Shown: positions 4,595 through 30,456, numbered from the stretch's first letter. The stretch is 32,000 bases of DNA from an uncultured archaeon (GCA_964586355.1 CAZPGO010000019.1:1-32000), one strand, 5' to 3'. A program made the numbers and translations. The notes: a model not told the origin generated them from the letters alone.

Positions 4595-6421
4595 ATGGCA
4601 AAAAACACAATAAAAGCAAAAATTTATGTTAATGGTGGGCTTGTTGGATTTCATGAAGATCCAGAAAAGTTAAGAGCAGATCTTATTAAAAAAAGAAGAA
4701 GTGGTCAAATTAATCCTCAGATTAATATCTATTTTAATGATCTCACAAAAGAGGTTTATATTAATACAGATGCTGGAAGAGTACAAAGGCCTGTAATAGT
4801 TGTAGAAAAAGGAGTTTCAAAATTAACTACTGAGATATTAGAAGAAATAAAAAAAAAGAAACTTTCTTGGGATGATCTAATAAATAAAGGAATTATTGAA
4901 TTTTTAGATGCTGAGGAAGAAGAAAATGCCTATGTCGCACTAAATGAAGAAGAATTAACTGAAGATCATACTCATTTAGAAATATCTAGTACTGGTATAT
5001 TTAGTATTATAACATCTATGGTCCCTTTTGTTGAACACAACATGGCTGGTAAAGCAATCCATGGTGCTAAATTATTTAAACAAGCAATTGGAATTCCTTC
5101 AGCAAATTATAATTTAAGATTTGATACAGAGATGCATGTTTTATATTATCCTCAAAAACCACTAGTATCAACAAGAACAGAAAAACTTTTAGATCTTGAA
5201 AAAAGACCAATGATTCAAAATGCTATTGTTGCTATTATGCCATTTAAGGGTTTTAATATGACAGATGCTTTTGTTTTAAATAAAGCCTCTGTGGATAGAG
5301 CTTTTGGAAGATCTTCCTATTATAGATCATATTCTGCTATTGAAACTAGATATCCTTCTGGTCAAACAGATAAATTTATTGTGCCAAATGAAGAAGCATC
5401 AGGATATAGAGGAGAAAATGCTTATCTAAATTTAGGAGAAGATGGTCTTGCTAATGTAGAGAGCTATGTTAGTGAAGGCGGTGTAGTTATTGGAATGACT
5501 TCCCCTCCAAGATTTGTAGAAGAAGTTTCAGAGTTTGGAGTTGTTACTGAAGAGAGAAGAGATACTTCTGTTTGTTCAAGAAAACATTTAAACGGTTTTG
5601 TGGACAAAGTTTTGATTAGTGAGACTGTAGATGGAACAAAATTAAGTAAAGTAAAAGTAAGAACATATTTAGAACCACAAGTTGGAGATAAATTTACCTC
5701 AAATCATGCACAGAAAGGTGTTGTTGGTGCTGTGGTAAGAGAAGAGGATTTGCCTTTTACTTCTAATGGTGTAAAACCAGATGTTATTTTAAGTCCACAC
5801 TCCATTCCATCAAGAATGACTCTGGGTCATCTTTTTGAGACTATTGGTGGAAAAGCTGTTTCTTTAAGTGGAGAATCAATAGATGGAACTGCTTTTTATA
5901 ATGATAAAGAAAATATTTTTAAGATATTAAAAGAATATGGGTTTAGACCAGATGGAAAAGAAGTATTTTATGATGGTCAAACTGGAGAAAAAATAGAAAT
6001 GCCTATTTTTGTAGGTCCATTATCTTATGAAAGATTGTTAAGTCACATTGTTGTTAATAGAATACAAGCAAGAGATAAAGGTCCAGTGCAATTATTAACA
6101 AGACAACCAACAGAAGGAAAACAAAAAGGTGGCGGAATCAGATTTGGTGAAATGGAAGGCGAAGCATTGGTTGCTCATGGGGCTGCAATGACTCTTCAAG
6201 AGAAACTAATGGACGATGCTGATGAAATGGAAGTTTTGTTTTGTGAAGATTGTGGACTTCCAGCAGTAGATGATAAGATCACAAACAAAAAGTATTGTAA
6301 AGTTTGTGGTGGAAGCAATGTATATCCAATAAAGATAAGCTACGGTTTTAAGTTATTGTTAGATGAGCTTAAAGCAATGGGCGTTTATCCAAAAATAAAT
6401 ATTGGAGATAAGATTGACTAG
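4595..6421 (+). CDS. rpoB1: DNA-directed RNA polymerase subunit B' (C-terminal half of split RpoB)
   Basis: 'GDKFTSNHAQKGVVG', 'RFGEMEGEALVAHGAA', and a C-terminal Zn ribbon 'CEDCG...CKVCGG'. SD-like GAAGTGA lies 6 nt upstream. Confidence 0.95.
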   Translation: MAKNTIKAKIYVNGGLVGFHEDPEKLRADLIKKRRSGQINPQINIYFNDLTKEVYINTDAGRVQRPVIVVEKGVSKLTTEILEEIKKKKLSWDDLINKGIIEFLDAEEEENAYVALNEEELTEDHTHLEISSTGIFSIITSMVPFVEHNMAGKAIHGAKLFKQAIGIPSANYNLRFDTEMHVLYYPQKPLVSTRTEKLLDLEKRPMIQNAIVAIMPFKGFNMTDAFVLNKASVDRAFGRSSYYRSYSAIETRYPSGQTDKFIVPNEEASGYRGENAYLNLGEDGLANVESYVSEGGVVIGMTSPPRFVEEVSEFGVVTEERRDTSVCSRKHLNGFVDKVLISETVDGTKLSKVKVRTYLEPQVGDKFTSNHAQKGVVGAVVREEDLPFTSNGVKPDVILSPHSIPSRMTLGHLFETIGGKAVSLSGESIDGTAFYNDKENIFKILKEYGFRPDGKEVFYDGQTGEKIEMPIFVGPLSYERLLSHIVVNRIQARDKGPVQLLTRQPTEGKQKGGGIRFGEMEGEALVAHGAAMTLQEKLMDDADEMEVLFCEDCGLPAVDDKITNKKYCKVCGGSNVYPIKISYGFKLLLDELKAMGVYPKINIGDKID

Positions 6422-6473: not shown

Positions 6474-9065
6474 ATGACATCATCAAAGAAAATAAAAAAT
6501 ATTGAATTTGGAGTTTTAAGTCCAGATATGATTAGAAAGCTTTCTGTTGTTGAAATAACAAGAGCAGAAACCTATGATAAAGATGGATATCCTATAGAGA
6601 GAGGACTTATGGATGCACATTTAGGAGTAATCTCCCCAGGGCTTAGATGTAAAACCTGTGGGCAGACTATGAAAAATTGCCCAGGTCATTTTGGATCTTT
6701 AGAGCTTATAAGACCTGTGATTCATCCAAAATTTGGTGATAAGCTTTATCAAGTTTTAGCAGGAACCTGTCATAATTGTGGAAGGATTTTAGTTCCTGAT
6801 GACAGAATAAATGAAGTTATGGCTCATGCAGGAAATACAGAAAAAGCAGTAAAAGAAATATTAAATATTGTTAAAAATCAAAAAGAGTGTCCTCATTGTG
6901 GTGACAAGACGTCTAAAATAACCTTAGATAAGCCAACAAATATTTTTAAAGATCAAGAAAGAATTTATCCTTCTGAAATACTTGATTGGTTAGTAAAAAT
7001 TCCAGAAGACGATTTGTTTTTGTTTGGATATTCTGAAAGAATAAAACCTCAATGGTTTATTTTATCTGTATTGCCTATTTCTCCAGTATCTATAAGACCT
7101 TCTTTGTCTTTAGAAAATGTAATTACTTCAGAGGATGATTTAACTTATAAGTTATTAGATATTGTTAGAATAAATATAAGACTACAAGAAAACATAAATG
7201 CTGGGGCTCCACAAATAATTATTGAAGATTTATGGGATTTGTTACAATATAATATTACAACATATATTGATAATAATACAGCAGGAGTTCCTCCAGCAAA
7301 GCAAAGATCAGGAAGACCACTAAAAACAATTGCTCAAAGACTAAAAGGAAAAAAAGGAAGATTTAGATTTAATCTAATAGGAAAAAGAGTAAATGCTTCT
7401 GCCCGTTCAACTATTACTCCATCAACAGATATTAAAATTAATGAACTTGGTGTTCCTGAATTTATTGCAGAAACATTAACAATTCCAGAAAAAATAACTA
7501 GTTGGAATATGGATAAAATTAAAGAATATATTCTAAAAGGAAAAGTAAATTACATAATAACAGAAAAAGGTCTGCGAAAAATAGTTACAGAAGAAAATAA
7601 AGAAGAAATAGTTACACAATTAGAAGAAGGAATGACCATTAAAAGAAAATTACAAAATGGAGATGTTGTTATCTTTAATAGACAACCAACACTTCATAGA
7701 ACATCAATGATGGGTCATTATGTAAAAGTTTTACCAGGGAGAACATTTAAGCTAAATCCAATTTCTTGTCCTCCATATAATGCGGATTTTGATGGGGATG
7801 ATATGAATCTTCATGTTCCACAAAGTGAGGATGCTTATACTGAGGTAAAAGAATTAATGGGTGTGGAAAAACATGTAATAAGTGTAAGACATGGAGATCC
7901 AACTATTGTTCCAGATCACGATCTAGTATCAGGATCATATCTTCTTACAAGAAATTCTACTGAGTTTAATAAAAAAGAAGCTATGGAGTTACTATATTCA
8001 GTAGGAATAACAGAATTACCAACAGCAGATAGAGGTAGAGGAAGATATTCTGGTAAACTGATTTTTAGTCAAATACTTCCAAAAGATCTAAATCTAGAAT
8101 ATACAAACAAACTTTGTCAAACAATATCAAAATCAAAAGGCTGTAAAATATGTAAGAAAGAAAAGTGTCCTTATGATTGTTATCTAAAAATAGAAAAAGG
8201 CAAATTAGTGTCAGGTGTTTTAGATGATAAGATGAGTAAACATAAAAACTTAATAGAAATTATTTATAGACACTATGGTTCTGAAGCCTTAGTTGATTTT
8301 TATTATAAATTAGGAAAACTAGTCTTCTATAATTTAAACAAAAGAGGATTAACTGTTGCTCTTGATGAGTACAAGGCACCAGAAGAACTTAAAAAAGAGA
8401 TAAGATCAAAAATAAGATCAACAATTACAGAATCCAATAAACTAATAAAACAGTTTGAAGAAAAAACATTAAAATTAATTTCTGGAAAAGATCTTAAAGA
8501 AACATTTGAAGCAGAAACCATAAGAATAACTGCTAATATGAAAGATGAAATTTCAGATAAGATTTTTGATCTAAAATTAAATGATGTTCTTGGAGAAAAT
8601 AAACAAGCAAACAATAACACTGTTATGCTTGCAAGTGTTGGTGGAGCTAGAGGAAGAGTATTAAATGTTGCAAATATGCTTGGACTTTGGGGACAAGTAA
8701 CAGTAAGAAAAGGAAGACCAAAAAACGGATTTTCTGGAAGATTATTAAGCTTAAGTCCAAAAGGTACAAATCAGTTGGTTGACTATGGATTTGTTCAAAC
8801 AAGCTTCTTTGAAGGAATGAATCCAAAAGAATATTTTTGTCACGCTATGGGTGGTAGACAAGGTGAAATTGATACTGGTGTTGCTACAAAAGTTTCAGGT
8901 TATCTTTATAGAAGACTTTCAAATGCTATGAAAGATTTAGTAGTTGATCAGGATTTAAAAGTTATGTCTGCAGATAGACAAATTGTTCAGTTTGTTTATG
9001 GTGATGATGGTTTATCTCCTGACAAGGCTTACTTAGGAAAAAATATAAACTTCTTTAATGAATGA
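6474..9065 (+). CDS. rpoA1: DNA-directed RNA polymerase subunit A'
   Basis: Zn motifs 'CKTCGQTMKNCPGHFG' and 'CHNCG', 'RQPTLHRTSMMGH', and the catalytic 'YNADFDGDDMNLHVPQS'. Confidence 0.95.
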   Translation: MTSSKKIKNIEFGVLSPDMIRKLSVVEITRAETYDKDGYPIERGLMDAHLGVISPGLRCKTCGQTMKNCPGHFGSLELIRPVIHPKFGDKLYQVLAGTCHNCGRILVPDDRINEVMAHAGNTEKAVKEILNIVKNQKECPHCGDKTSKITLDKPTNIFKDQERIYPSEILDWLVKIPEDDLFLFGYSERIKPQWFILSVLPISPVSIRPSLSLENVITSEDDLTYKLLDIVRINIRLQENINAGAPQIIIEDLWDLLQYNITTYIDNNTAGVPPAKQRSGRPLKTIAQRLKGKKGRFRFNLIGKRVNASARSTITPSTDIKINELGVPEFIAETLTIPEKITSWNMDKIKEYILKGKVNYIITEKGLRKIVTEENKEEIVTQLEEGMTIKRKLQNGDVVIFNRQPTLHRTSMMGHYVKVLPGRTFKLNPISCPPYNADFDGDDMNLHVPQSEDAYTEVKELMGVEKHVISVRHGDPTIVPDHDLVSGSYLLTRNSTEFNKKEAMELLYSVGITELPTADRGRGRYSGKLIFSQILPKDLNLEYTNKLCQTISKSKGCKICKKEKCPYDCYLKIEKGKLVSGVLDDKMSKHKNLIEIIYRHYGSEALVDFYYKLGKLVFYNLNKRGLTVALDEYKAPEELKKEIRSKIRSTITESNKLIKQFEEKTLKLISGKDLKETFEAETIRITANMKDEISDKIFDLKLNDVLGENKQANNNTVMLASVGGARGRVLNVANMLGLWGQVTVRKGRPKNGFSGRLLSLSPKGTNQLVDYGFVQTSFFEGMNPKEYFCHAMGGRQGEIDTGVATKVSGYLYRRLSNAMKDLVVDQDLKVMSADRQIVQFVYGDDGLSPDKAYLGKNINFFNE

Positions 9066-10381: not shown

Positions 10382-10894
10382 ATGGTTGATTGGAATAAAT
10401 TTAATCAAGAGTTAAGAAATGTTATAGATACAGGAAAATTAATCTATGGTACAAATACAATAAAAAAAGAGTGTTTTGTAGGAGATCCTAAATTATTGGT
10501 TTTATCAAATACTATTGATAAGAAAAAAAAACAGGAATTTCTATATTATGCTAAATTGTTAGATATAAAAGCAATAGAATATCCAGAAAATTCATTAGAA
10601 TTAGGATCTGTTTGTGCAAAACCTTTTAGTGTGGCTATTGTTGCAGTAGTTGATTTTGGAAAGTCTTCAATAGTGGAAGTAATTGAAGCTAAAGATAGTG
10701 ATACTAAAGAAAATAAAAAAGTAATTGCAAAAAGAGTAAAAAAAGAAGAAAAAGAGATTAAGAAAAAAGCAAAAGCAACAAAAATAGAACACACAAAGAA
10801 AGCAAAAGCAGCTGATGAAATTGTAGAAGATAAGGAAGTGCCAATTACTGAGGATAAATTTTTTAAAGATATAATAAAAATAAAAAAGAAATGA
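10382..10894 (+). CDS. rpl30e: Ribosomal protein L30e (eL30) with a ~70-aa Lys/Glu-rich C-terminal extension
   Basis: The first ~100 aa 'ELRNVIDTGKLIYGTNTIKK...KLLVLSNTI...YYAKLLDIKAIEYPENSLELGSVCAKPFSVAIVAVVDFGKSSI' match the L30e pattern. It sits in the canonical position after rpoA2. Confidence 0.85.
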   Translation: MVDWNKFNQELRNVIDTGKLIYGTNTIKKECFVGDPKLLVLSNTIDKKKKQEFLYYAKLLDIKAIEYPENSLELGSVCAKPFSVAIVAVVDFGKSSIVEVIEAKDSDTKENKKVIAKRVKKEEKEIKKKAKATKIEHTKKAKAADEIVEDKEVPITEDKFFKDIIKIKKK

Positions 10895-12139: not shown

Positions 12140-12598
12140 ATGATTTTTATACCTATGCCTGTAGGAATAAAAAGCCAAAAACGGAAGTTAACGACAACTT
12201 CTCTGACAATAAAAAGACTGACAGAAAAGTCAATACGATTATCTTCTAAAATGCGTGATCTTTTTTCTATTGAAAGATCTGTAAGGGTTAAAACAGGTAT
12301 TCCAAAAAGAAATTATATTAGTGCTTTACAAAAAATATTAATAAATAGAAAAATTATTGATAAAGAAGTATTAGATATTATAATTAATGAAGAACATAAT
12401 CAAAATTCAGCTTTTAGAATTGTCTCTTTTTATTCAAAAAAATTAAAAACCAATGATAAAGATAAAATTATTAATCACATGAGAAAAAAGATAAAATTAT
12501 TATTAACTATAAACCAAGAAATAAATAACTATCTAATCAAAAAACCCAAAAATTATTCTACTTATTTTAGATATAATTTTGATGTTATTTTTTTTTGA
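12140..12598 (+). CDS. Hypothetical basic protein (152 aa), part of the insert between rps7 and fusA
   Basis: An open frame of 152 codons is very unlikely by chance in sequence this AT-rich. No SD and no family recognised. 'VKTGIPKRNYISALQK' is faintly helix-turn-helix-like. Confidence 0.4.
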   Translation: MIFIPMPVGIKSQKRKLTTTSLTIKRLTEKSIRLSSKMRDLFSIERSVRVKTGIPKRNYISALQKILINRKIIDKEVLDIIINEEHNQNSAFRIVSFYSKKLKTNDKDKIINHMRKKIKLLLTINQEINNYLIKKPKNYSTYFRYNFDVIFF

Positions 12599-12890
12599 AA
12601 TTAAATCTTCAATAGAACTAGCTATGTTTTTTTGTGGTTTGGATAAATTTGATTTAAATAAAAAGTGATTTTAATAAAATTTATTATGTTAATAAAAATG
12701 TTATTCAAATGCAAGAATTGCTCTTGTTTTTAGAAAAGAAAGGTTTGATGTTACTAAAAAGTTTAATGATATTTTAAATTCTAAAATTTAAAATTAATTT
12801 TATATTTTTATTTTTTATTTTCCACAGGACAACACCCCCAGAAAGCCTTTTAAACTATTAATTCTAAGGTATATATGTTAGGGATAATTT

Positions 12891-13770
12891 ATGCAAAATA
12901 ATTCAATAGCAATTTTTGAAAATAAAAAAATAAGAAGAATCTGGCATAATGATAAATGGTGGTTTGTTTTAGAAGATGTTGTTTTTATACTTATTGATTC
13001 TTTAGATGTTAAACAATATATAAATAAAATGAAGCAAAGAGATGAATTTCTTTCTAAGGGTACAAATTGTACACACCCTTTCTGTTAAAACAATTGGTGG
13101 ACCACAAAATATGAATTGTGCAAATACAGAAGGATTATTTAGAATTATTCAGTCCATACCTTCTCCAAAAGTAGAACCATTTAAATTATGGCTTGCAAAA
13201 GTTGGTTATCAAAGAATGCAAGAGATTGAAAATCCAGAACTTGCTCAGAAAAGAATAATTGAGATCTATAAACAAAAAGGATATTCTGATGCTTGGATAG
13301 ACAAAAGAATAAGGGGTATTGCAATTAGAGACGAATTAACTTTTGAATGGCAAAAAAGAGGAATGAAAGGAGATAAAGATTTTGTAATATTAACAGCTGA
13401 AATATCAAAAGCCACATTTGAGATGACTCCAAAAGAATACAAAAAATTTAAGGGTCTAAAAAAAGAAAATCTTAGAGATCATATGAATGATCTAGAACTA
13501 ATTTTTACACTGTTGAAAGAATCTGTTACTAAGGAATTAACAGTTAAAGAAGGTCCAGATAATTTTCCAAAAACAAAAACAATTGCAAAACGTGGTGGTG
13601 GCGTTGCTGGTATTGCCAGAAAAGTAACAGAAAAAGAGCTTAAAAGGAAAGTTTCTACTAAAGACAATTATTTAAAAATTCCAGAAAAGCAAAAAAGATT
13701 ACTAAAAAGCCCAACACCAAATAAGAAAATAAAGTATGGTATTTCTAAGAAAAAATTAAATAAAAAGTAA
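12891..13770 (+). pseudogene. Bro-N / phage-antirepressor-like (DinD-like) gene split by a frameshift
   Basis: ORF 12891-13088 encodes 'IAIFENKKIRRIWHNDKWWFVLEDVV', a Bro-N N-terminus. ORF 13042-13770, in the +1 frame, continues with 'NTEGLFRIIQSIPSPKVEPFKLWLAKVG...IRDELTFEWQKRG...KKFKGLKKENLRDHMNDLELIF...AKRGGGVAGIARK'. I recall that run as one contiguous family in bacteria, archaea and phages. The two ORFs overlap by 47 nt. Confidence 0.7.
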
Positions 13771-13953: not shown

Positions 13954-16152
13954 ATGGGAAGAAAAGAAATAGTTGCAGAACTTGCATCAAAATTAATGGC
14001 AAACACAAAAAATATTAGAAATTTAGCTATAATAGCACACATTGATCATGGTAAATCAACATTAACTGATAATTTAGTTGCTACCGCCGGATTAATCTCA
14101 AAAGAACTTGCAGGACAACAAGTTTTTATGGATTCATATGTTTTAGAACAAGAAAGAGGAATAACAATTAACTCTTCAAATGTTTCTGTTCCTTGTGATT
14201 TTTTAGGAGAAAAATATCTTATTAATATTATTGATACTCCAGGTCACGTTGACTTTGGTGGAGATGTTATAAGAGCTATGAGAGCTGTTGATGGAGCTGT
14301 TTTAGTTGTTGACTGTGTGGAAGGAGTTATGCCACAAACAGAAACTGTTTTAAGACAAGCATTAAAGGAAAGAGTAAAACCTGTTTTATTTATTAATAAA
14401 GTTGATAGACTAATAACAGAAATGAATGTTACTCCTGAGGATATGCAAAAAAGATTTGTAAAAGTAGTAATGGATATTAATAATTTAATCTCTAAAAATG
14501 CACCAGAACAATTTGTAAAAGATTGGCAAGTAAGTATTAAAGATGGATCTGTATGTTTTGGTTCTGGTTTTCATAACTGGGCATTATCTGTTCCTGCTAT
14601 GGGTAGATATGAAATTAAATTTTCAGATGTTATTGATTATTGTAAAAATGATAAACAAAAAGATCTCTCTCAAAAAATACCAATTAGTGAAGTGTTTATA
14701 GAAATGGTTTCTAAGCATTTACCAAATCCTCTAGAAGCACAAAAATACAGAGTGCCAATTATTTGGAGTGGAGATTTAGAAACACCTGAAGGAAAAGCAA
14801 TGACCGAATGTAAAGCTACTGAAGATAATGTTGCTATGATGATTACAGATGTTGTTTTAGATAAACATGCTGGAGATATTGCTTCTGGGAGAGTATATGC
14901 TGGATCTATAAAAAAAGGAATGGATCTAAAAGTACTTGGTTTAGATAAAACTGCAAAAGTTCAACAAGTAGGAATCTATTTAGGTCCTGAAAGAGTAATA
15001 TTAGATGAAGTTGTTGCAGGAAATATTGCTTGTATTGTTGGTATGAAAGAAGTATATGCTGGTCAAACACTATCAAACAAAGAAATGAATCCTTTTGAAG
15101 ACTTTATGTCTGATGTTGAACCAGTAATGACTGTGTCAATTGAAGCAAAGAATAGTAAAGATCTTCCAAAATTAATAGAAGTTGTTCACAATATTACAAA
15201 AGAAGATCCAAATATCCGAGCTGAACTAAATCAAGAAACAGGGGAGCACTTAATTTCTGGTATGGGTGAATTACATCTAGAAATAACACAATATAAAATA
15301 GAAAAAGATAATAATATCCCAATAACCGTAAGTCCACCAATTGTTGTATATTACGAAACTATTCAAAAAGCTTCTGAAGTTATTGAAGGAAAGTCCCCAA
15401 ATAAGCACAATAAGTTTAAGTTTAGAATTGAACCAATATCAGAAGAGATGTTTGCTAAAGTTAAAGCAATTAAATTTGATGGCAAAATAAGACCTAATAA
15501 AGATACAGAAATAATCAAAAAATTCCAAGAAGCTGGTTTTGGTACAGATGAAGCAAAAAATATTTGGGCTGTTCATAATAATTGTATATTGATTAATAGA
15601 ACAAAAGGTATTCAAAATCTATTTGAAACAAGAGAATTAATCATAGACGGTTTTAATGATGCTACAAAAGAAGGACCAGTAGCAAAAGAAAAAGTTTCAG
15701 GAATGATTGTTAATCTAGAAGATGCAACTCTTCACGAAGATGCAATTCATAGAGGTCCAGCACAAGTTTTACCTGCTGTAACTAGACCAATATATGCAGC
15801 TATGCTTTCAAGTGATTATACATTATTAGAACCAAAACAAAATATATCTGTTTCAGTACCACAAGATTTTATGGGTGCTGTTAATAAAGTTCTATCAGGA
15901 AGAAGAACACAAATAGAAAATATTAATATGGAAGGAGACTCTTGTGTTGTTATTGGAAAGATTCCTGTAAAGTCATTGATTGGGTTAAGTCAAGAGATGA
16001 GAGGAGAAACACAAGGAAGAGCTATTTGGACTGCAGAATATGCTGGTTACGAAAAGTTACCAAAATCTTTGCTTATGACTACAATTGCAGAGATAAGGAC
16101 TAGAAAAGGTATGGATCCTGAACCAAAGTCTGCTGAGTTTTTTATGGACTAG
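13954..16152 (+). CDS. fusA: Translation elongation factor 2 (aEF-2)
   Basis: G motifs 'AHIDHGKSTLTD', 'DTPGHVDF', 'NKVDR', and the diphthamide region 'HEDAIHRGPAQ'. I moved the start from GTG 13945 to ATG 13954 because the GTG lies inside a GGTGA SD placed 4 nt before that ATG. Confidence 0.95.
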   Translation: MGRKEIVAELASKLMANTKNIRNLAIIAHIDHGKSTLTDNLVATAGLISKELAGQQVFMDSYVLEQERGITINSSNVSVPCDFLGEKYLINIIDTPGHVDFGGDVIRAMRAVDGAVLVVDCVEGVMPQTETVLRQALKERVKPVLFINKVDRLITEMNVTPEDMQKRFVKVVMDINNLISKNAPEQFVKDWQVSIKDGSVCFGSGFHNWALSVPAMGRYEIKFSDVIDYCKNDKQKDLSQKIPISEVFIEMVSKHLPNPLEAQKYRVPIIWSGDLETPEGKAMTECKATEDNVAMMITDVVLDKHAGDIASGRVYAGSIKKGMDLKVLGLDKTAKVQQVGIYLGPERVILDEVVAGNIACIVGMKEVYAGQTLSNKEMNPFEDFMSDVEPVMTVSIEAKNSKDLPKLIEVVHNITKEDPNIRAELNQETGEHLISGMGELHLEITQYKIEKDNNIPITVSPPIVVYYETIQKASEVIEGKSPNKHNKFKFRIEPISEEMFAKVKAIKFDGKIRPNKDTEIIKKFQEAGFGTDEAKNIWAVHNNCILINRTKGIQNLFETRELIIDGFNDATKEGPVAKEKVSGMIVNLEDATLHEDAIHRGPAQVLPAVTRPIYAAMLSSDYTLLEPKQNISVSVPQDFMGAVNKVLSGRRTQIENINMEGDSCVVIGKIPVKSLIGLSQEMRGETQGRAIWTAEYAGYEKLPKSLLMTTIAEIRTRKGMDPEPKSAEFFMD

Positions 16153-16182
16153 TTTTTTTTTAACTAGTTTTTCTTTTTTTTT
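16153..16182 (+). terminator. Oligo-T tracts after fusA
   Basis: After the TAG stop there are runs of T9, T5 and T9 separated by the palindrome AACTAGTT. Confidence 0.4.
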
Positions 16183-16203
16183 AAAACCTATTTACACAAA
16201 ATG

Positions 16204-16252
16204 TTGGACAGAATTCTTTTATATTTGGACAAAAACACTAAATCTTGGACAA
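16204..16252. promoter_or_regulatory. Three phased direct repeats of TTGGACA (candidate transcription-factor site array)
   Basis: TTGGACA starts at 16204, 16225 and 16245, a spacing of 21 and 20 nt (about two helical turns). The array lies in the fusA-to-16374 intergenic region. The third copy shares the 11-mer ATCTTGGACAA with 26476-26486. Confidence 0.35.
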
Positions 16253-16284: not shown

Positions 16285-16293
16285 TTTATAAAT
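16285..16293 (+). promoter_or_regulatory. TATA-box candidate (TTTATAAAT) upstream of the Lys-rich ORF
   Basis: AT-rich TATA-like element inside a short direct repeat (AAATGTTTAT x2), about 85 nt upstream of ATG 16374. Other TATA-like strings follow at 16306-16318, so the assignment is ambiguous. Confidence 0.25.
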
Positions 16294-16373
16294 GTTTATG
16301 TAATATAATATAAATATTATATGTAATTCTTTTGGGGAAGAATTAAAATAAAAAACTGAAATGGAGGGATACC

Positions 16374-16598
16374 ATGGTTGCAACAAAAAAGAAAGCACCT
16401 ACTAAGAAGGTTGTAAAGAAAGCACCTGCTAAGAAGGTTGTAAAAAAACCTGTAAAGAAGGTTGTAAAGAAAGCACCTGCTAAGAAGGTTGTAAAGAAAC
16501 CTGTAAAGAAGGTTGTAAAGAAAGCACCTGCTAAAAAGGTTGTAAAGAAACCTGTAAAGAAGGTTGTAAAGAAAGCACCTGCTAAAAAGAAAAAGTAG
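16374..16598 (+). CDS. Lys-rich tandem-repeat protein (74 aa; histone H1-tail-like, candidate nucleic-acid-binding protein)
   Basis: Strong GGAGG SD at 16363-16367, 6 nt before the ATG. By my count the composition is K35 V18 A10 P8 T2 M1. The protein is built from KKAPAKKVV-KKPVKKVV units. T-rich tracts follow the stop. Confidence 0.6.
   Translation: MVATKKKAPTKKVVKKAPAKKVVKKPVKKVVKKAPAKKVVKKPVKKVVKKAPAKKVVKKPVKKVVKKAPAKKKK
16416..16568 (+). repeat. Three near-identical 51-nt tandem repeats (17-aa unit KKAPAKKVVKKPVKKVV), with partial copies on both sides (16389-16589)
   Basis: Direct reading: the units differ only at synonymous AAA/AAG positions. Confidence 0.9.
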
Positions 16599-16647
16599 GT
16601 TTTTAATTTTTTTAATTTTTTAATTTTTTCTCTTTTTATTTTTTTAT
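16599..16647 (+). terminator. T-rich tract after the Lys-rich ORF
   Basis: GTTTTTAATTTTTTTAATTTTTTAATTTTTTCTCTTTTTATTTTTTT contains several T5-T7 runs. Confidence 0.35.
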
Positions 16648-16682: not shown

Positions 16683-17795
16683 ATGTTAAAGAAAATTGTT
16701 ATTTTTGGTTCAGATACTAGTTATGGAAAAATAGCTTTTGATTTTTTTTCAAAGTTTTCTGATTCTTATAAAATTGTTGGTCTTACTTTTTCTAGTGATA
16801 GTTCTTTATTTCTTAAGCAATTAAAAGCTACAAATTCACAATTTGCTATGGTTTCAGATGAAAAGATATGTAAAGAAATTGAATTAAAATTAAACACTCC
16901 AAATTGTTTTTTTTTCTCAAAAGAGAATTCTATTAATTTTGTAAAAAATTCTGATGCAGATATTTATGTGTTTACTGAGTCAAATACTAGTACTTTAAAA
17001 AACATTTTATCTATAATATATGATCAAAAAGATGTTGTTTTAATGTCTGTTGATCTAATTTTATTTTCTGGAAAAATTCTGAAATATGAAGCAAAATTAA
17101 AAGGCATTAATCTATATTCTATTACTTTACAAAACTATTCTTTAAATCAATTTTTAAAAGTTAGAAATATTAAAGAGTTGGACAAAATCATATTACTAAC
17201 ACAAAATAACAAATATACAAAAGAGGATGTAGAAGAATTTAAAAATCAAAAAAAAGATTTCTATAGATTTAAAAAATGTTTTTATAGTTTTACAAAATTT
17301 AATTTAGTACAACAATTATATTTAATAAATTATTTATATGATATTTCTCCAGAAAAATTTGACTATTTTAATCAAAGTAAGAATATTATAAGTCTCATTA
17401 CTGAGTTTTCGGATGGTAGTAATTTAATTAATACCACAAATAACGATATTTATCCAGTTTTATATTATTATTTTTGTAAAGACAAAGAAGGCTTTAAAGA
17501 TAAAAACTCTTTAATTTCAGGAGATAAAATAAATTTGTCCTTATCAAGATTAGATCTTTTAAAAGAGCCTTTTATTAAATTAGGTGTTGATTTTTTAAAA
17601 AAAGGCGGTTCTTTTCCAATTGTTTATTTTTTAGCTTTTGAAATTTTAACTGAAAAATATTGGAATAATAAAATTAAGTATAAGGATATCTTAAAAAAGT
17701 TAGAAACCCTTTATAATGATAAAAAGTATTATGTTACAAAACCAGATCTTAAAACAATAATTGCTCTTAAAAAAAAATTAGAAAATAATCTATAA
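16683..17795 (+). CDS. DXR-like protein (homologue of 1-deoxy-D-xylulose-5-phosphate reductoisomerase) with substituted cofactor and metal-binding motifs; probable pseudoenzyme or neofunctionalised enzyme
   Basis: Collinear over its full length with E. coli Dxr as I recall it. 'KKIVIFGSDTSYGKIAFDFF...YKIVGLTF' matches 'LTILGSTGSIGCSTLDVV...FRVVALVA'. 'LYSITLQNYSLNQFL' matches 'LLPVDSEHNAIFQSL'. 'KIILLTQNNKY' matches 'SILLTGSGGPF'. 'NQSKNIISLITEFSDGSNLINTTNNDIYPV' matches '[30 protein letters not shown]'. The length is similar (370 vs ~398 aa). Confidence 0.6.
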   Translation: MLKKIVIFGSDTSYGKIAFDFFSKFSDSYKIVGLTFSSDSSLFLKQLKATNSQFAMVSDEKICKEIELKLNTPNCFFFSKENSINFVKNSDADIYVFTESNTSTLKNILSIIYDQKDVVLMSVDLILFSGKILKYEAKLKGINLYSITLQNYSLNQFLKVRNIKELDKIILLTQNNKYTKEDVEEFKNQKKDFYRFKKCFYSFTKFNLVQQLYLINYLYDISPEKFDYFNQSKNIISLITEFSDGSNLINTTNNDIYPVLYYYFCKDKEGFKDKNSLISGDKINLSLSRLDLLKEPFIKLGVDFLKKGGSFPIVYFLAFEILTEKYWNNKIKYKDILKKLETLYNDKKYYVTKPDLKTIIALKKKLENNL

Positions 17796-24450: not shown

Positions 24451-24954
24451 GTGATTAAAAGAGCAGTTTCTCCAATAATTAGTGTGATTTTACTTATTTT
24501 GGTTGCTGTTATTTTAATAACAATGTTTTTGTTATGGGCAAAGGTAGAAATAAAAGAAGATCTTCAAAGCTCTAGTGATGCTTTAAGTCCTGCTAGTGAT
24601 ATTGATTGTCTAAATTATAGCTTATCAGTAGACTCTTGTTTGATTTACTCTTCTTCAAAAAAAGTTGAGGTTCTTTTAACAAATGCAACATCAATAAGAT
24701 ATTTTGATATCATGTTAACAATAGAAGCAGAGAACCTATCAGAAGCAAAAGAAAAATGGGTTGGTGTTTTTTCAAATGCATTATTTCCAGGACATAGCAA
24801 ATTATATAATACTGATACAAATTTCTTATTTACAAAAAAAGAGAATTTTACAAATCTAAATTTTAATGAGATCTCTAATATTATTTTAACTAATGGGGCT
24901 TGTAAAAGAGAGATCATTAATCTAATTAATATGTGTGAGATTATTAATGAATAA
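24451..24954 (+). CDS. Archaeal type IV pilin-like protein (class III signal peptide, Pilin_N/DUF1628 type), paralogue 1
   Basis: The N-terminus 'MIKRAVSPIISVILLILVAVILITMF' fits the recalled (K/R)(G/A)(V/L)SPVI..VL(L/M)(I/V)AITV motif. GTG start with GTGAT 6 nt upstream. Confidence 0.7.
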   Translation: MIKRAVSPIISVILLILVAVILITMFLLWAKVEIKEDLQSSSDALSPASDIDCLNYSLSVDSCLIYSSSKKVEVLLTNATSIRYFDIMLTIEAENLSEAKEKWVGVFSNALFPGHSKLYNTDTNFLFTKKENFTNLNFNEISNIILTNGACKREIINLINMCEIINE

Positions 24955-25444
24955 AAAAGCTTTATCACCAATAATAAGTGTTATTTTAATAATTTTAGTT
25001 GCTGTTATATTAATTACTATGTTTTTAACATGGTCAAAGGAATATTATAATAATCAGTTAACCAACACTACTGAGCAGCTAAAACGAGCATCAAGTATTG
25101 AGTGTGCTAATTCTAAATTAAAAGTTTCTTCTTGTTCTTTTGATTCTTTTACTAAGGAGCTTTCTTTATTTTTAATAAATGATTCACAAATAAGATATTT
25201 TGATTTTACTTTAACTATAGAAGGAGTTGATCAAACATCTCAAGAACCAGTTAGACTTTATGGTGTTTTTAATCATATATTGGAGCCAGGAGCTTCTATC
25301 AATCTTTTAACAGATAGCAACTTTTTGGTTTTAGATTCTTCTGGTAATTATGAAAATTTAGATCTAAATAGTGTTTCTCTAATTAACCTAAGTAACGGTG
25401 CTTGCAAAAACCAGAACTTTGTTTTAGTGTGTTCTGTTGACTAA
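24947..25444 (+). CDS. Archaeal type IV pilin-like protein, paralogue 2
   Basis: 'MNKKALSPIISVILIILVAVILITMF'. I moved the start from 24935 to ATG 24947, which overlaps the upstream stop (ATGAATAA) and gives a typical short, charged signal peptide. It shares 'IRYFD', 'LTIE', 'GVF...PG.S' and 'NGACK' blocks with paralogue 1. Confidence 0.7.
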   Translation: MNKKALSPIISVILIILVAVILITMFLTWSKEYYNNQLTNTTEQLKRASSIECANSKLKVSSCSFDSFTKELSLFLINDSQIRYFDFTLTIEGVDQTSQEPVRLYGVFNHILEPGASINLLTDSNFLVLDSSGNYENLDLNSVSLINLSNGACKNQNFVLVCSVD

Positions 25445-26389: not shown

Positions 26390-26655
26390 TTTTTGTTCGT
26401 GCTCCTACAAATATATTTATTTTTAGTTGTTTTTATATATGTTTGTTTTTTATTTTAGAGTTGTTTTTGCACAATATCTTGGACAAGCCAACTTTTTTTA
26501 AAACAAAAAATAGGCATTTAAAAATAGATCCCCGTTTTTAACAAAAATTACTGATCTAAAAGATCTTACAATATATTTATATTTGTTTTTTAGAATAAGT
26601 AGTATAATAATGTTAAAAAATTAACTATGCTTATTTATCTTTGGAGATCTTATTT

Positions 26656-29600
26656 ATGAAAAAATTATTTTTGTTGTTTTTTTTAATACTTAACCTATCT
26701 ATGGTATTTAGTCTGACTCCTAATTTCTTTAATAAAGTTAACTATTATGATCAAATTATTGATGTTGGTGTTTTAGATAATAACCTTTCAGGAGATTTCT
26801 TAAAAATAACACTCTCAGATCAATATGAAACTTATTTTGAAGAGGCTTTTTCTATTAAAAATAGTAAAAAAATAGATGTTGTTTTTGATAGCTCTGTTTC
26901 TTCTTATCTTGTTGCAAACTATGAGGTTTTGGATTCTAATTATTCTATATTAGAGACCTATTCTTTTCCTTTATTTTTAGAGAGTATAGATCTTGGCAGA
27001 ATTTTTTTGTGTGATATAAAAGAATGCCATTATTCTGATTCCAAAAAATATTTTGATAATAGTTCTAAAATCTACCTTAATGTTGATAATAATTTAGATG
27101 TTAATTATTCTCTTGATCTTTTTTTAAAAGAAGGAAAAAATTATAAACTTTTATTTTCTGAAAGCACACATGTATTTCCTTATTTCTTAGCTATTGATGA
27201 TTCTGGTTCTTATAAGCTGGTTTTAAGTTATTATTTTGAAGATCTAATTTTTACTAAAAAAACTTTTTTTGAGATTGGGTCTCTAGAGCCAATTTCTTCT
27301 GATAGTTTTTCTGAGAGTAATATTGTATATTCTGATTTTGTGGATAGTAATTTAACAGAACCTGTTATAAATAAAAATACTTCTAATGATTCAAATACAT
27401 TATCAGAGAAAAATTATTTTTTTCAAAATTCAAAAAATATTTTAGCTTTGCTCTTTATATCTATTATTTTAATTTTGATTTTAATAATTTTATTTACAAG
27501 TAAAAATAAAAGATCAAGACATAGAAAAATAGCTTCTTTTTTTGTAGTTTTTTTTATTTTTTTTAATCTAGGATCTGTTTTTGCAGAATCTGAAAACGTT
27601 GTGACTTTGGAAGGTAGTACAAAACTTAATGAGATATTTACTTATTATAGAACCCTAAATGCAGCATCTAAAGACATAGTTTTTTCTTTTGAAATTAATG
27701 AAAGTCTAGAAGCTAATGACACTTTACTAGATAATTACCAGATTATACCTTCTGATGTAGACGACATTTTTAGAGAACCGATATTAGATTTAGAATATTC
27801 TAATAGATTTTTAGATTTTGCTGAAATTTATTCTTTGGAAAACAGATTAGAAACTGTTTATTTTTTTAATATTAATAAAAGTAATTCTACAGAGTATATA
27901 AATAATTCTTGTTTTGAAAATATTAGTAATTATTATAAAAGCATAGATTTTTTTGGTCAAACAAATATAATAAACGAACAAGAAACTATAAGACAGCTTT
28001 TTTTGCCAAGAACTAAACCATATATTGAATCAGAGCTAGAAAAGTTTGGAGATTCTGATTTTATTAATGATTGTTTTAATTTTTTATTAACTGAAAAAAT
28101 ACTTGTTCCCTATGATATTTTATTATATACAAAAGTGGAGCTAAAAAACATACCAAAAAATTTTGAGCTTTATATGTCTATTGAAACAATTAATTTTGAA
28201 CCTCCTTTTTTAACAACAAAAAAACCATTGGATATATTAGTTTCTTTTAAAAGAACCCCAATAGTTATAGAATCTAGTTATTCTATGCCCTATAACTGCG
28301 ATAAAGAAAATCTTAGTTATTGTTATATTAATAATTCTGACTTTGATTCAATTAAATATCTATCAGATACTGGTAGTATAGCAAGTCCAGAGTTTTATAA
28401 AAGAATGGATGATTATGCAAGTTATCTTAATAATTTTGATTTAGTAAAAGATCTATATAGAAAAGAGGTTGATGGAGTTAACATTAAAGATCTGCTCTCC
28501 TTTGCAGCAATTAATAGAGAAAATCTTTGTTTTTCTAATGAAAAAAGAGAATATAATGAATTAATTTTTGATGTAGCAAAGGCCTACAATTTTACAGACG
28601 AGCAAGCTTTACAGTTTTGGGCTTTGATTGCTGAGAGATCTAACTGTGATATTAATTATGATGATGTTGATAATGATTTGCTTGGTCTTGCACAAATAGA
28701 TTTAGAGGCATATTATAATCAGTATATTGATCTACATGCTTCTATGCATCCATTTTTAAAAGAAGAAGAGTATCTTCAGTATTTAGTTTTAGGAGACTTT
28801 AAAGAAATAAATGAAAAAAATATAGCAAAATTTGATGCTGATAAAGTTATTAGATTTGGTGGGCTTTCTAGTAAAATAAGTAATATGTACTGGTATTATG
28901 AATTTCTTATAAAAGCAATAAAAAATAGTAAAGATAAATACGGGTCTTTAGTTTTGTTTGCAGGAACAGATTATTTAAAAGAAATGACTACTCTTGTTAA
29001 TTTTTGTGAGAAGTATTATACAGATAACTATCTTGAAAATATCTATTATGATTATGAATCTTTTGTGACAGATAATTTAAAAAAAAACTTAAGAAGCATT
29101 TTTGTTCTAAGTAGTTTACTGGATAAAAAAGAGTTCTCTTTTACTGAAGAGATATGTAAGTATACTGGGGAGCCTGAGTCTATAGTTATGGAATATCCAA
29201 TAATATATACAAATCTAACTGGCAATTATTGTATAGATAATGGATTTGTGCCATCTGTTAATTATCCTAGATACAAAAAAATAGACGGTGTTACTTATCA
29301 TGGAACTGGTGCTTTACTATATAAATGTGAGGATAATAAGATATATAGCTGTATTCCAGGAACAGAGATCATACAAGAAGTAAGTGGATCTGCAGTAAAT
29401 ATACTTAAAGAAGAGCTTTGTTCTAGAGAGCTAATTCTAAAAGAAAAAAGAGTTAAGATTTCTAAAGAGTTTAAGGTTTTAATAAATTATCTTGCAATAA
29501 AGCACAAATATTTGACTAATAGAGAATATTTTGTTTCTAATGGTTTTTTAGAAGACTCTTCTAATGACTCAAAGAAATTTCTTGAAAATAAAACAAATTA

Positions 29601-30456
29601 TTTTAAATTGAAATATGATTATTTTGATATTAAAAAAGAGAATTTTTTAGAGATCACTGCTGAAAAAAATATTTCTTTGTTAAAAAGAATTGATCCAAAT
29701 TATTATTTTGCAGAGATTTTACAAAATAGAAGAAGTTTAGCCTATGCAAGGTCTGGTAACTGTGCTCAGTTTGTTAGAGAAATTGGAACAAATCTTTTTA
29801 CTTCAGAGCTTTATCCAAGAGCAGGAGTTTCTGCTGCTTGGTTATATGATACTACTCCAACAGTAAAAGAGAGATATAATTTAATTTGGGAATCTCCAAT
29901 TGTTTGTTATAGTAAACCAGGAAACAGAAAATTACCAAGAAGTCGTTGTGTTGAGACCCCAGAAGTACAAAGTCCTACTTTAGATTTAGATCTGTTGCCT
30001 GATGGTGCGATCTTAGGTCTTTATGTTTGTAAACAAAGTCATGGGTCTTTAAGAAATCTAGAGTATACACATGTTGGGACCTATATTGGCAAAGATCAAC
30101 TAGGTCATCATTTGTTTATACATATGGGTAATTCTAGATCTATAGAGATAATAAGTGAATATACCTCTCACATATGTAGTTCTGGGTATAATAGGCAAAT
30201 AATGAGAGTCTATGTCCCAAAATCCACAGGAATAACTAGTATGGATCAATTAAGGGAATTAAAAGAAAAAGATTTATTACAACCAGTTACCTGGATTAAA
30301 GATATTAACGAAGTTATAAATAGATCAAATGGACTAGAATATCCTGAATTTGGTATTCAAGATGAAGAAGAAATGGATTCTTCTGAATATGAATCAGATG
30401 ATTCAGAAAGCGAAGATGCAGATCTTGAAGAAAATGCAGAGCAAGAATCTGAATAA
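26656..30456 (+). CDS. Giant surface protein (~1266 aa): signal peptide, ectodomain 1, internal TM hairpin, ectodomain 2 with an SLT-like lytic-transglycosylase motif set and a C-terminal NlpC/P60-like Cys-His peptidase motif set, then an acidic tail
   Basis: The start is set at ATG 26656 (GGAGAT SD 8 nt upstream; 'MKKLFLLFFLILNLSMVFS' is a signal peptide) rather than TTG 26641. SLT-like: 'LIAERSNCD...DLLGLAQID...ISNMYWYYEFLIKAIK...GSLVLFAGTDYL' against the recalled ES...GLMQ...YL...AYNAG. NlpC/P60-like: 'SGNCAQFVREIG' (Cys) ... 'LPDGAILGLYV' ... 'YTHVGTYIGKDQLGHHLFIHMGNS' against the recalled DCSGFV ... GDLVFF ... HVGIYIG.....IHA. Confidence 0.7.
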   Translation: MKKLFLLFFLILNLSMVFSLTPNFFNKVNYYDQIIDVGVLDNNLSGDFLKITLSDQYETYFEEAFSIKNSKKIDVVFDSSVSSYLVANYEVLDSNYSILETYSFPLFLESIDLGRIFLCDIKECHYSDSKKYFDNSSKIYLNVDNNLDVNYSLDLFLKEGKNYKLLFSESTHVFPYFLAIDDSGSYKLVLSYYFEDLIFTKKTFFEIGSLEPISSDSFSESNIVYSDFVDSNLTEPVINKNTSNDSNTLSEKNYFFQNSKNILALLFISIILILILIILFTSKNKRSRHRKIASFFVVFFIFFNLGSVFAESENVVTLEGSTKLNEIFTYYRTLNAASKDIVFSFEINESLEANDTLLDNYQIIPSDVDDIFREPILDLEYSNRFLDFAEIYSLENRLETVYFFNINKSNSTEYINNSCFENISNYYKSIDFFGQTNIINEQETIRQLFLPRTKPYIESELEKFGDSDFINDCFNFLLTEKILVPYDILLYTKVELKNIPKNFELYMSIETINFEPPFLTTKKPLDILVSFKRTPIVIESSYSMPYNCDKENLSYCYINNSDFDSIKYLSDTGSIASPEFYKRMDDYASYLNNFDLVKDLYRKEVDGVNIKDLLSFAAINRENLCFSNEKREYNELIFDVAKAYNFTDEQALQFWALIAERSNCDINYDDVDNDLLGLAQIDLEAYYNQYIDLHASMHPFLKEEEYLQYLVLGDFKEINEKNIAKFDADKVIRFGGLSSKISNMYWYYEFLIKAIKNSKDKYGSLVLFAGTDYLKEMTTLVNFCEKYYTDNYLENIYYDYESFVTDNLKKNLRSIFVLSSLLDKKEFSFTEEICKYTGEPESIVMEYPIIYTNLTGNYCIDNGFVPSVNYPRYKKIDGVTYHGTGALLYKCEDNKIYSCIPGTEIIQEVSGSAVNILKEELCSRELILKEKRVKISKEFKVLINYLAIKHKYLTNREYFVSNGFLEDSSNDSKKFLENKTNYFKLKYDYFDIKKENFLEITAEKNISLLKRIDPNYYFAEILQNRRSLAYARSGNCAQFVREIGTNLFTSELYPRAGVSAAWLYDTTPTVKERYNLIWESPIVCYSKPGNRKLPRSRCVETPEVQSPTLDLDLLPDGAILGLYVCKQSHGSLRNLEYTHVGTYIGKDQLGHHLFIHMGNSRSIEIISEYTSHICSSGYNRQIMRVYVPKSTGITSMDQLRELKEKDLLQPVTWIKDINEVINRSNGLEYPEFGIQDEEEMDSSEYESDDSESEDADLEENAEQESE

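Follow-up and report, generated by a model that had tools for sequence, protein, structure and literature searches.

Is a reading frame that encodes hardly anything but lysine, valine, alanine and proline a gene and, if so, what could its product do for the cell? This question is raised by a 74-codon open reading frame (K-ORF) in the 32,000-nt stretch of DNA analysed here (the window), for which an original prediction had proposed a small, independent and highly expressed gene encoding a nucleoid-, RNA- or ribosome-coating polycation. The residue totals on which that proposal was built are exact: the 74-aa product uses only six residue types (K35, V18, A10, P8, T2, M1; 47% Lys), has a calculated pI of 11.5 and a net charge of +34.5, and is devoid of acidic, aromatic or strongly hydrophobic residues, with about one positive charge per two residues and the rest being small A, V, P or T. 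Its layout is MVAT-KKKAPTKKVV-(KKAPAKKVVKKPVKKVV)x3-KKAPAKKKK, the first repeat unit (KKKAPTKKVV, 10 aa) having previously been written one K short. The near-identical 51-nt repeats described before were recovered by Tandem Repeats Finder with 98% match and 0 indels over 3.6 copies, each 51-nt unit consisting of a 27-nt and a 24-nt sub-unit, and the units do differ only at synonymous AAA/AAG positions as far as the three full ones are concerned, their sole differences being two such sites. An antisense reading frame at the same place was considered and rejected, the opposite strand having neither a conserved start nor a Shine-Dalgarno sequence (SD).

Genomic context of the K-ORF

The window (27.7% GC) comes from an archaeon related to Iainarchaeota (DPANN, Nanobdellati) and not from a bacterium. 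Its genes include those for RNA polymerase subunits, L30e/L7Ae, S12, S7 and an EF-2 recognized as aEF-2 (TIGR00490, 978 bits), together with an archaeal-type D-aminoacyl-tRNA deacylase, SHMT, a Thy1-domain (ThyX-type) gene and a RuBisCO that among the NCBIfam models is matched best by NF010002 (625 bits). The RuBisCO gene (30472-31932, minus strand) scores only 346 bits on the type III model, under its cut-off, and an Rfam scan of the window returned one tRNA only. More distant EF-2 homologues carry the label Diapherotrites, which was taken to mean Iainarchaeota, within the DPANN group.

The K-ORF is situated at the end of an L30e-S12-S7-EF-2 translation cluster, before a DXR-like gene with its ATG at 16683. 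The order EF-2, EF-1alpha, S10 is kept in more distant Iainarchaeota (EF-2 62-63% identical), and in the clade of the window the cluster is interrupted after EF-2. The genome being archaeal, the bacterial framing of the locus (fusA/tuf) has to be abandoned; what survives of the expectation that tuf and rps10 would follow fusA is that the K-ORF sits at the cluster break, the archaeal neighbours being EF-1alpha and S10. The DXR-like gene (16683-17795) is divergent; it adjoins the K-ORF in 11 out of 11 loci and matches DXP reductoisomerase domains with 28-41 bits, far under the NCBIfam cut-offs. In an archaeon, the mevalonate pathway would be expected.

Signals for transcription and translation

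The elements found around the K-ORF are compiled in Table 1. At the end of EF-2, the inverted repeat ACTAGTT/AACTAGT (16148-16154/16162-16168) overlaps the TAG stop codon and is part of a probable terminator block conserved in the related locus L001, which a bacterial-type terminator scan misses because it contains only 2 G-C pairs. Oligo-T runs (T9/T5/T9) occupy 16153-16182 upstream of the K-ORF, and further T-tracts follow its stop codon. Of the T-rich terminators proposed on both sides, the oligo-T tracts themselves were confirmed. A promoter and terminator scan of the K-ORF, whose bacterial models are uninformative for an archaeal host, found no hairpin terminator; the flanking tracts would fit archaeal oligo-T termination.

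Table 1. Predicted features of the K-ORF locus (positions in the window)
Feature	Position	Strand	Description
EF-2 end and probable terminator	16148-16182	+	inverted repeat, then T5-C-T9
TTGGACA array	16194-16251	+	three motifs (16204, 16225, 16245)
TATA-box-like element	16285-16293	+	TTTATAAAT, ~81 nt upstream of ATG
5'-leader hairpin	16324-16345	+	TAATTCTTT-TGGG-GAAGAATTA, SD left unpaired
Shine-Dalgarno sequence	16363-16367	+	GGAGG, 6 nt ahead of ATG
K-ORF coding sequence	16374-16598	+	ATG...TAG, 74 aa
Tandem repeat inside K-ORF	16404-16589	+	51-nt (17-aa) unit, 3.6 copies
Six T5-T7 tracts	16600-16647	+	probable terminator of the K-ORF mRNA (archaeal oligo-T type)

The three TTGGACA motifs of the array are spaced by 21 and 20 nt, all in K-ORF orientation, and extend to the consensus nCAYnAWTTnTTGGACA (CAC-N7-TTGGACA). 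The entire window contains 9 matches to this motif, 3 of them within the array. Every K-ORF of the family described below has one copy 124-137 nt ahead of its ATG, and the motif is 47-fold denser in the 3960 nt upstream of K-ORFs (330 nt for each K-ORF; 29 occurrences) than in 199 kb elsewhere (31 occurrences). The array probably represents transcription-factor binding sites upstream of a promoter. An additional extended motif (GCACAATATCTTGGACA) was found at 26469-26485, in an intergenic region ~160 nt upstream of a 1271-aa ORF (26641-30456) that has no match in Pfam or NCBIfam; this ORF and the K-ORF may share a regulator.

The TATA-like element is TTTATAAAT or TTTATATAT in every one of the 12 family members, at a corresponding position, and its location in the window predicts a 5' leader of ~55 nt. 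With transcription starting, as we infer, ~23 nt past this element, the leader hairpin would be 5'-proximal. The stem sequence varies by lineage (TTCTGC-TTTT-GCAGAA in L012 and L013, TCTGCT-GTA-AGCAGA in L017) while the hairpin is constant, and the fold z-score of the leader (-75 to -13) averages -2.0 in 11 members versus -0.35 to -0.8 in 27 control upstream regions (Mann-Whitney p=9e-4). The hairpin could serve to stabilise the mRNA. The whole 5' region is more conserved than the adjacent coding sequence of the DXR-like gene.

GGAGG or GGGGG(G) precedes the start codon by 5-12 nt in 12 of 12 K-ORFs. As had been noticed, the window has just two GGAGG sites acting as SD, those of the K-ORF and the RuBisCO gene, these being the only 2 out of 14 GGAGG occurrences that are followed by a start codon; the K-ORF site is strong but not uniquely the best-matched SD of the window, as S12 and EF-2 show 6-nt AGGTGA matches. 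Past the T-tracts downstream of the K-ORF, the TATA-like sequence TTTTTATAAAAAAA lies ~35 nt upstream of the DXR-like ATG, and in the relatives T-rich tracts are likewise followed by a TATA-like element at the same place. The DXR-like gene has no SD. Its own TATA-like element and the missing SD suggest that it is transcribed separately from the K-ORF, as a leaderless mRNA.

The K-ORF family in related genomes

Relatives were identified by synteny because protein-database searches are blind to this family, the anchors being the DXR-like gene and EF-2 homologues of graded similarity. With the DXR-like gene as anchor, metagenomes and genomes gave only close relatives; EF-2 led further, yielding 12 K-ORFs in 11 loci, all between EF-2 and the DXR-like gene and with EF-2 72-94% identical to that of the window. 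The search of related genomes for KKAPAKK-type repeat ORFs that the original prediction had proposed has produced comparable reading frames. Each of the 12 starts with ATG and is accompanied by a G-rich SD, a TATA box, T-tracts and the motif found upstream of the window K-ORF.

Family members range from 13 to at least 110 aa. In addition to the 74-aa product of the window, K-ORFs of 34 aa (L001), 41 aa (L006), 16 aa (L010; MVAKKKAAAKKPAKKK), 13 aa (L011; MAAKKKKAAKKKK), 79 aa (L012), 70 aa with 8 Arg (L013), 76 aa (L014) and 16 aa (L017) were found; that of L015 has at least 110 aa, with a 100-N scaffold gap within the repeat, and L016 encodes two copies, of 13 and 19 aa, either side of an inserted ZIP transporter gene. 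A further locus, L005, contains only the C-terminus of a K-ORF at a contig end. Acidic residues (D/E) are absent from every member, K+R accounts for 44-62% of the residues and the calculated pI is 10.8-12.0. The only charge-relevant substitutions in the family are K to R, and Asn and Glu are missing from all 12 K-ORFs even though each of them is one mutation away from AAA. No alignment column is conserved except M1 and lysines. When ~182 kb (window plus loci) was screened for SD-preceded ORFs that have 12 aa or more, 40% K+R or more and no D/E, only members of the K-ORF family qualified.

The repeat number differs between relatives, in agreement with the copy-number variation anticipated for the repeat, and so does the unit itself, with periods of 51, 27, 33, 30, 30/63, 33 and 33 nt across lineages, all of them multiples of 3; short members are without any repeat. 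Even L001 and L006, whose flanking DNA is 91-95% identical, have a different repeat structure. In a neighbour-joining EF-2 tree, long forms branch among short ones, and therefore K-ORF length is evolutionarily labile. In L016, two full cassettes (motif, TATA, hairpin, SD and ORF; 13 and 19 aa at 5499-5540 and 6687-6746) lie on either side of the ZIP transporter gene, itself an insertion between EF-2 and the DXR-like gene; the completeness of both indicates that the cassette was apparently duplicated as a unit.

No K-ORF was detected within ±10 kb of EF-2 in distant Iainarchaeota (40-49% GC), the distribution seen being a narrow clade with EF-2 at least 72% identical. The K-ORF is very probably a genuine expressed gene, and its proposed independence is upheld by start and stop signals of its own that are conserved in relatives. 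As far as can be read from these genomes, it is a clade-specific gene of low-GC, Iainarchaeota-related DPANN archaea that is probably transcribed and translated separately.

Codon use and repeat number

AAG makes up 63% of the Lys codons in the window K-ORF versus 17% in the 26 other window genes (Fisher p=3e-9). A general high-expression bias was discarded as the explanation, given that the EF-2, RuBisCO and ribosomal protein genes have only 7-30% AAG, and so was a family-wide enrichment, which is significant in only 3 of 12 members (window, L001, L014). What all 12 K-ORFs have in common is a longest A-run of at most 7 nt despite KKK and KKKK runs; if AAA and AAG are placed randomly the median longest A-run is 9-13 nt, with per-gene P values down to <0.0002. 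Iterated AAA codons have been shown to cause ribosome sliding and to yield less protein (PMC4363877). Together with such sliding, the A-run ceiling makes AAG placement point to selection for faithful full-length expression, whether it is translation, transcription or replication slippage on which this selection acts.

The original prediction had also warned that the assembled copy number might be wrong. Exactly this 74-aa protein is encoded on 8 contigs, and the K-ORF DNA was identical at the three places read, in three separately assembled JGI samples, identity being checked over 3.2 kb for two of the three. The longest exact direct repeat inside the K-ORF is 54 nt, and a unique AAA/AAG combination marks each 51-nt unit. 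In view of the three-sample identity and the length of this longest exact repeat, the copy number of the window is probably correct, with some possibility that short reads collapsed identical units. The warning is thus probably unfounded for the window copy and pertinent for the family: in L015 (GCA_028685115.1, JAQUEP010000002.1; 5518-6006) the 100-N gap lies inside perfect 33-nt repeats, a minimum of 66 aa is encoded ahead of the gap and of 44 aa past it, the post-gap frame being arbitrary, and the existing 66-aa gene call is truncated.

Database searches and comparison with known proteins

AlphaFold predicted no secondary structure for the K-ORF product (pLDDT 63, pTM 0.12), which favours disorder weakly because the run was on single-sequence input. 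Pfam searches at E<=10 returned no family, the lone 7-bit match to APC_basic being meaningless, and revealed neither a linker-histone winged-helix globular domain, the product being all repeat, nor a histone fold. On the other hand, all the NCBIfam matches of the family, every one of them sub-threshold, were to H1-like DNA-binding families. The L012 homologue scored 33.7 bits (E=4e-8) on NF038053, a Burkholderiales-type H1-like family with a cut-off of 80 bits, on which the window protein reached 6.5 bits (E=8.9); the same homologue scored 29.7 bits on NF050153 (Rv3852 family; cut-off 100) and relatives at most 21.7 bits on NF038052 (Chlamydia Hc2, HctB; cut-off 135), the window protein giving no match to these two. 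We read these matches as compositional likeness, which would make the K-ORF product an analogue and not a family member. Therefore, the resemblance to H1 tails and to AlgP/Hc-type proteins put forward earlier stands for composition and for the sub-threshold NCBIfam matches and fails for membership, all scores lying below the cut-offs.

Searches at larger scale gave a similar picture. A phmmer-type search of a 5.8-billion-protein collection produced one irrelevant match, and five family sequences that were looked up in this collection were all absent from it. When 1.84 billion representatives were scanned in full with HMMER, 30 matches were obtained, and the nine inspected were K-rich repeat regions in unrelated, mostly much larger proteins, which argues for convergence and not homology. 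PDB sequence searches with K-ORF products found no meaningful match, nor did a profile of five short forms match any PDB chain at E<=10. Lys-rich low-complexity regions of prokaryotic proteins show a statistical association with DNA binding (PMC6821194).

Among known systems, the bacterial H1-like proteins (NF038053, Hc2) are the best profile matches and share with the K-ORF family a Lys-rich composition, short in-frame repeats, a very high pI and variable length; Hc2, for instance, varies from 165 to 237 aa by repeat gain and loss (PMC2848022). K-ORF proteins differ in being archaeal, much smaller (down to 13 aa), V-rich and without a non-repeat domain. They display the traits of tail-only H1-like proteins, which are small, stand-alone, A/P-rich and acid-free, with ~40-50% K and no folded domain: K+R is 44-62%, D/E are absent, the pI is 10.8-12.0, and no secondary structure was predicted for the window product. 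TgH1-like (91 aa), which acts on Toxoplasma chromatin, is tail-only with no globular domain and has been described as similar to H1-like proteins of trypanosomatids and bacteria (PMC9769792). Such proteins of kinetoplastids and Toxoplasma are small, stand-alone and basic, of a size near that of the long K-ORF forms (70-79 aa); they are eukaryotic and associated with nucleosomal chromatin, whereas the K-ORF is archaeal. The eukaryotic proteins also carry sites for phosphorylation and ubiquitination; S and Y are absent from the window protein, and T occurs in it only twice. The sequences are too low in complexity for a homology test.

The K/A/P repeat composition is also shared by actinobacterial tails (HupB/HU, Ku, Rv3852), PAKKA-type Lys-rich tails being known to enhance DNA binding non-specifically (PMC3553676). 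The tails of HupB/HU and Ku are joined to folded DNA-binding domains and the K-ORF product is the tail alone. Similarly, Asgard HLoB/HMpB and Heimdallarchaeota histone N-tails are disordered, with >30% Lys and a high pI (bioRxiv 10.64898/2026.07.02.735847; PMC6136690). These Asgard tails have 16-32 aa and are fused to a histone fold, whereas the K-ORF is a separate transcription unit without such a fold. Finally, eL41 is an R/K-rich ribosomal micro-protein of 25 aa, tiny and extremely basic like the short K-ORF forms (13-19 aa), and the K-ORF adjoins translation genes. Nonetheless, eL41 is R-rich, of fixed length and with a conserved W, unlike the K-only family of hypervariable length; the missing match to a PDB chain and the range of 13 to at least 110 aa speak against membership.

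Proposed function and alternative explanations

We favour, with a probability of roughly 55%, the reading that the K-ORF product is a disordered, acid-free polycation that binds nucleic acids electrostatically in the manner of an H1 tail, as judged by analogy. DNA as its target is a more tentative proposal, to which we give somewhat less than an even chance, and RNA or ribosomes would serve just as plausibly as electrostatic targets. According to this model, a factor recognizing the CAC-N7-TTGGACA array upstream of the consensus TATA box would control transcription, and the mRNA would combine a 5' hairpin, a strong SD and AAG codons placed against slippery poly-A tracts; the high expression proposed earlier is a prediction from such sequence signals. 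The product would bind nucleic acid independently of sequence, neutralising phosphate charge, and the AT-rich chromosome would be condensed or bridged in the way known for the C-terminal tail of H1 and for the tail-only H1-like proteins of bacteria, kinetoplastids and Toxoplasma. Selection would act on charge density and solubility, on neither sequence nor length, and in-frame repeats would therefore be free to expand and contract between 13 and at least 110 aa. The H1-tail reading is weakened by the 13-19-aa members, which are far shorter than any described H1-like protein, and by the valine content of the window protein (24%), above that of typical K/A/P H1 tails.

The strongest competitor, which we nevertheless consider unlikely, is a polycation associated with RNA or the ribosome, i.e. 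a lineage-specific ribosomal micro-protein or RNA chaperone that would neutralise rRNA and not DNA and whose size and charge would be similar to those of eL41 or of the H1-like tails found on some ribosomal proteins. The place of the K-ORF at the end of the L30e-S12-S7-EF-2 cluster would suit such a role, as would the short forms (13-19 aa, +6.5 to +10.5), which are of micro-ribosomal-protein size. Moreover, mosquito RpS6 and RpL23a bear H1-like Lys-rich extensions (PMC11764897), ribosomal proteins are among those that co-purify with TgH1-like (PMC9769792), and 15% of archaeal ribosomal-protein low-complexity regions have at least 30% Lys (PMC6821194). Yet a length range of ~8-fold, with only M1 and lysines conserved, would be unusual for a structural component of the ribosome; a regulated promoter of its own is predicted for the gene in place of co-transcription with the cluster, the gene is missing at this locus in other Iainarchaeota (±10 kb of EF-2), and the short-form profile found no PDB match, that search being assumed to cover ribosomal chains from 20 residues upwards, the 25-aa eL41 among them. 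The same predicted promoter arrangement bears on a quite different and very improbable alternative, namely that the K-ORF is a Lys-codon-rich uORF controlling read-through into the DXR-like gene in an attenuator-like fashion. It lies directly upstream of this gene in 11/11 loci with T-tracts between, and the second copy of L016 precedes the inserted ZIP transporter gene; however, a TATA-like element 25-35 nt upstream of the DXR-like ATG and the lack of an SD suggest a leaderless transcript of its own, no terminator/antiterminator alternatives were noticed in an unsystematic search, members of 70 to >110 aa far exceed the length of leader peptides, the avoidance of A-runs argues for efficient full-length translation, and the DXR-like gene is unconnected to lysine metabolism.

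A further alternative, which we deem slightly less probable still, is an exported or membrane-active cationic peptide of an episymbiotic DPANN cell, either antimicrobial-like or an effector directed at the host. The KKVVKKPVKKVV pattern is spaced in a loosely amphipathic way, and in the unrelated proteins P0151 and P0132 K-rich tails stand beside hydrophobic, apparently membrane-spanning segments. The K-ORF product, by contrast, lacks both a signal peptide and any hydrophobic segment, hydrophobic residues are nearly absent from the short forms (MAAKKKKAAKKKK), and Pro every 8-9 residues together with 47% Lys makes membrane insertion unlikely. The least probable explanation of all is a spurious ORF, i.e. 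an AT-rich, non-coding tandem repeat in which one frame is free of stops by chance, or an error of assembly: a stop-free repeat with a period that is a multiple of 3 will always yield an ORF, K-ORF sequences are absent from protein databases, and the L015 relative has an assembly gap in its repeat. This is countered by the conservation of start, SD and promoter in 11 loci despite differing repeat units, by short members that are repeat-free and periods that are all multiples of 3, by the constraint on composition and A-runs, and by three samples that assemble identically.

It is tempting to speculate further, at a probability that we place well below that of the ribosomal alternative and above the remaining ones, that the family constitutes an encoded 'protein polyamine', an abundant counter-ion ranging from 13 aa (+7) to >110 aa (+50). 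Such a protein would act as a bulk nucleic-acid condensing agent of a metabolically reduced DPANN lineage, in which repeat slippage would tune valency fast and a dedicated transcription factor would set the dose. If true, it would define a class of archaeal chromatin- or RNA-organising factors without a folded domain.

Returning to the favoured H1-tail-like polycation, the usual chromatin proteins of archaea are histones, Alba, Cren7/Sul7 and MC1. Our literature search found no stand-alone H1-tail-like polycation described in archaea, and to our knowledge forms of 13-16 aa are undescribed for the bacterial or eukaryotic H1-like analogues. The literature consulted on archaeal chromatin deals with folded proteins and with Lys-rich tails on histone folds (PMC6136690; bioRxiv 10.64898/2026.07.02.735847), and Diapherotrites, the phylum assigned to the relatives, have been reported to encode histones (PMC6136690). 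If the K-ORF family binds DNA, archaea would have convergently reached a 'tail-only linker histone' solution. The natural length series of 13 to >110 aa within one clade offers a test of polycation valency in nucleic-acid condensation. In addition, genes of the K-ORF type are missing from large protein collections and break assemblies; similar genes are probably under-counted because composition filters hide them from HMM searches.

Further observations in the window

Two extra ORFs lie between S7 and EF-2 (12140-13770), one of 152 aa and of unknown function and the other a Bro-N-domain gene split across overlapping frames (12891-13088 and 13042-13770). In L010, L011 and L014, EF-2 directly follows S7 without these two ORFs, and the segment resembles an insertion of mobile or viral origin in which the Bro-N gene is frameshifted. 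The L30e/L7Ae-family protein (10382-10894; 170 aa) has a C-terminal extension of ~70 aa rich in K and E, an extension unlike the acid-free K-ORF product in composition. Two neighbouring small ORFs at 24451-25444 show weak matches to the N-terminal domain of archaeal type IV pilins.
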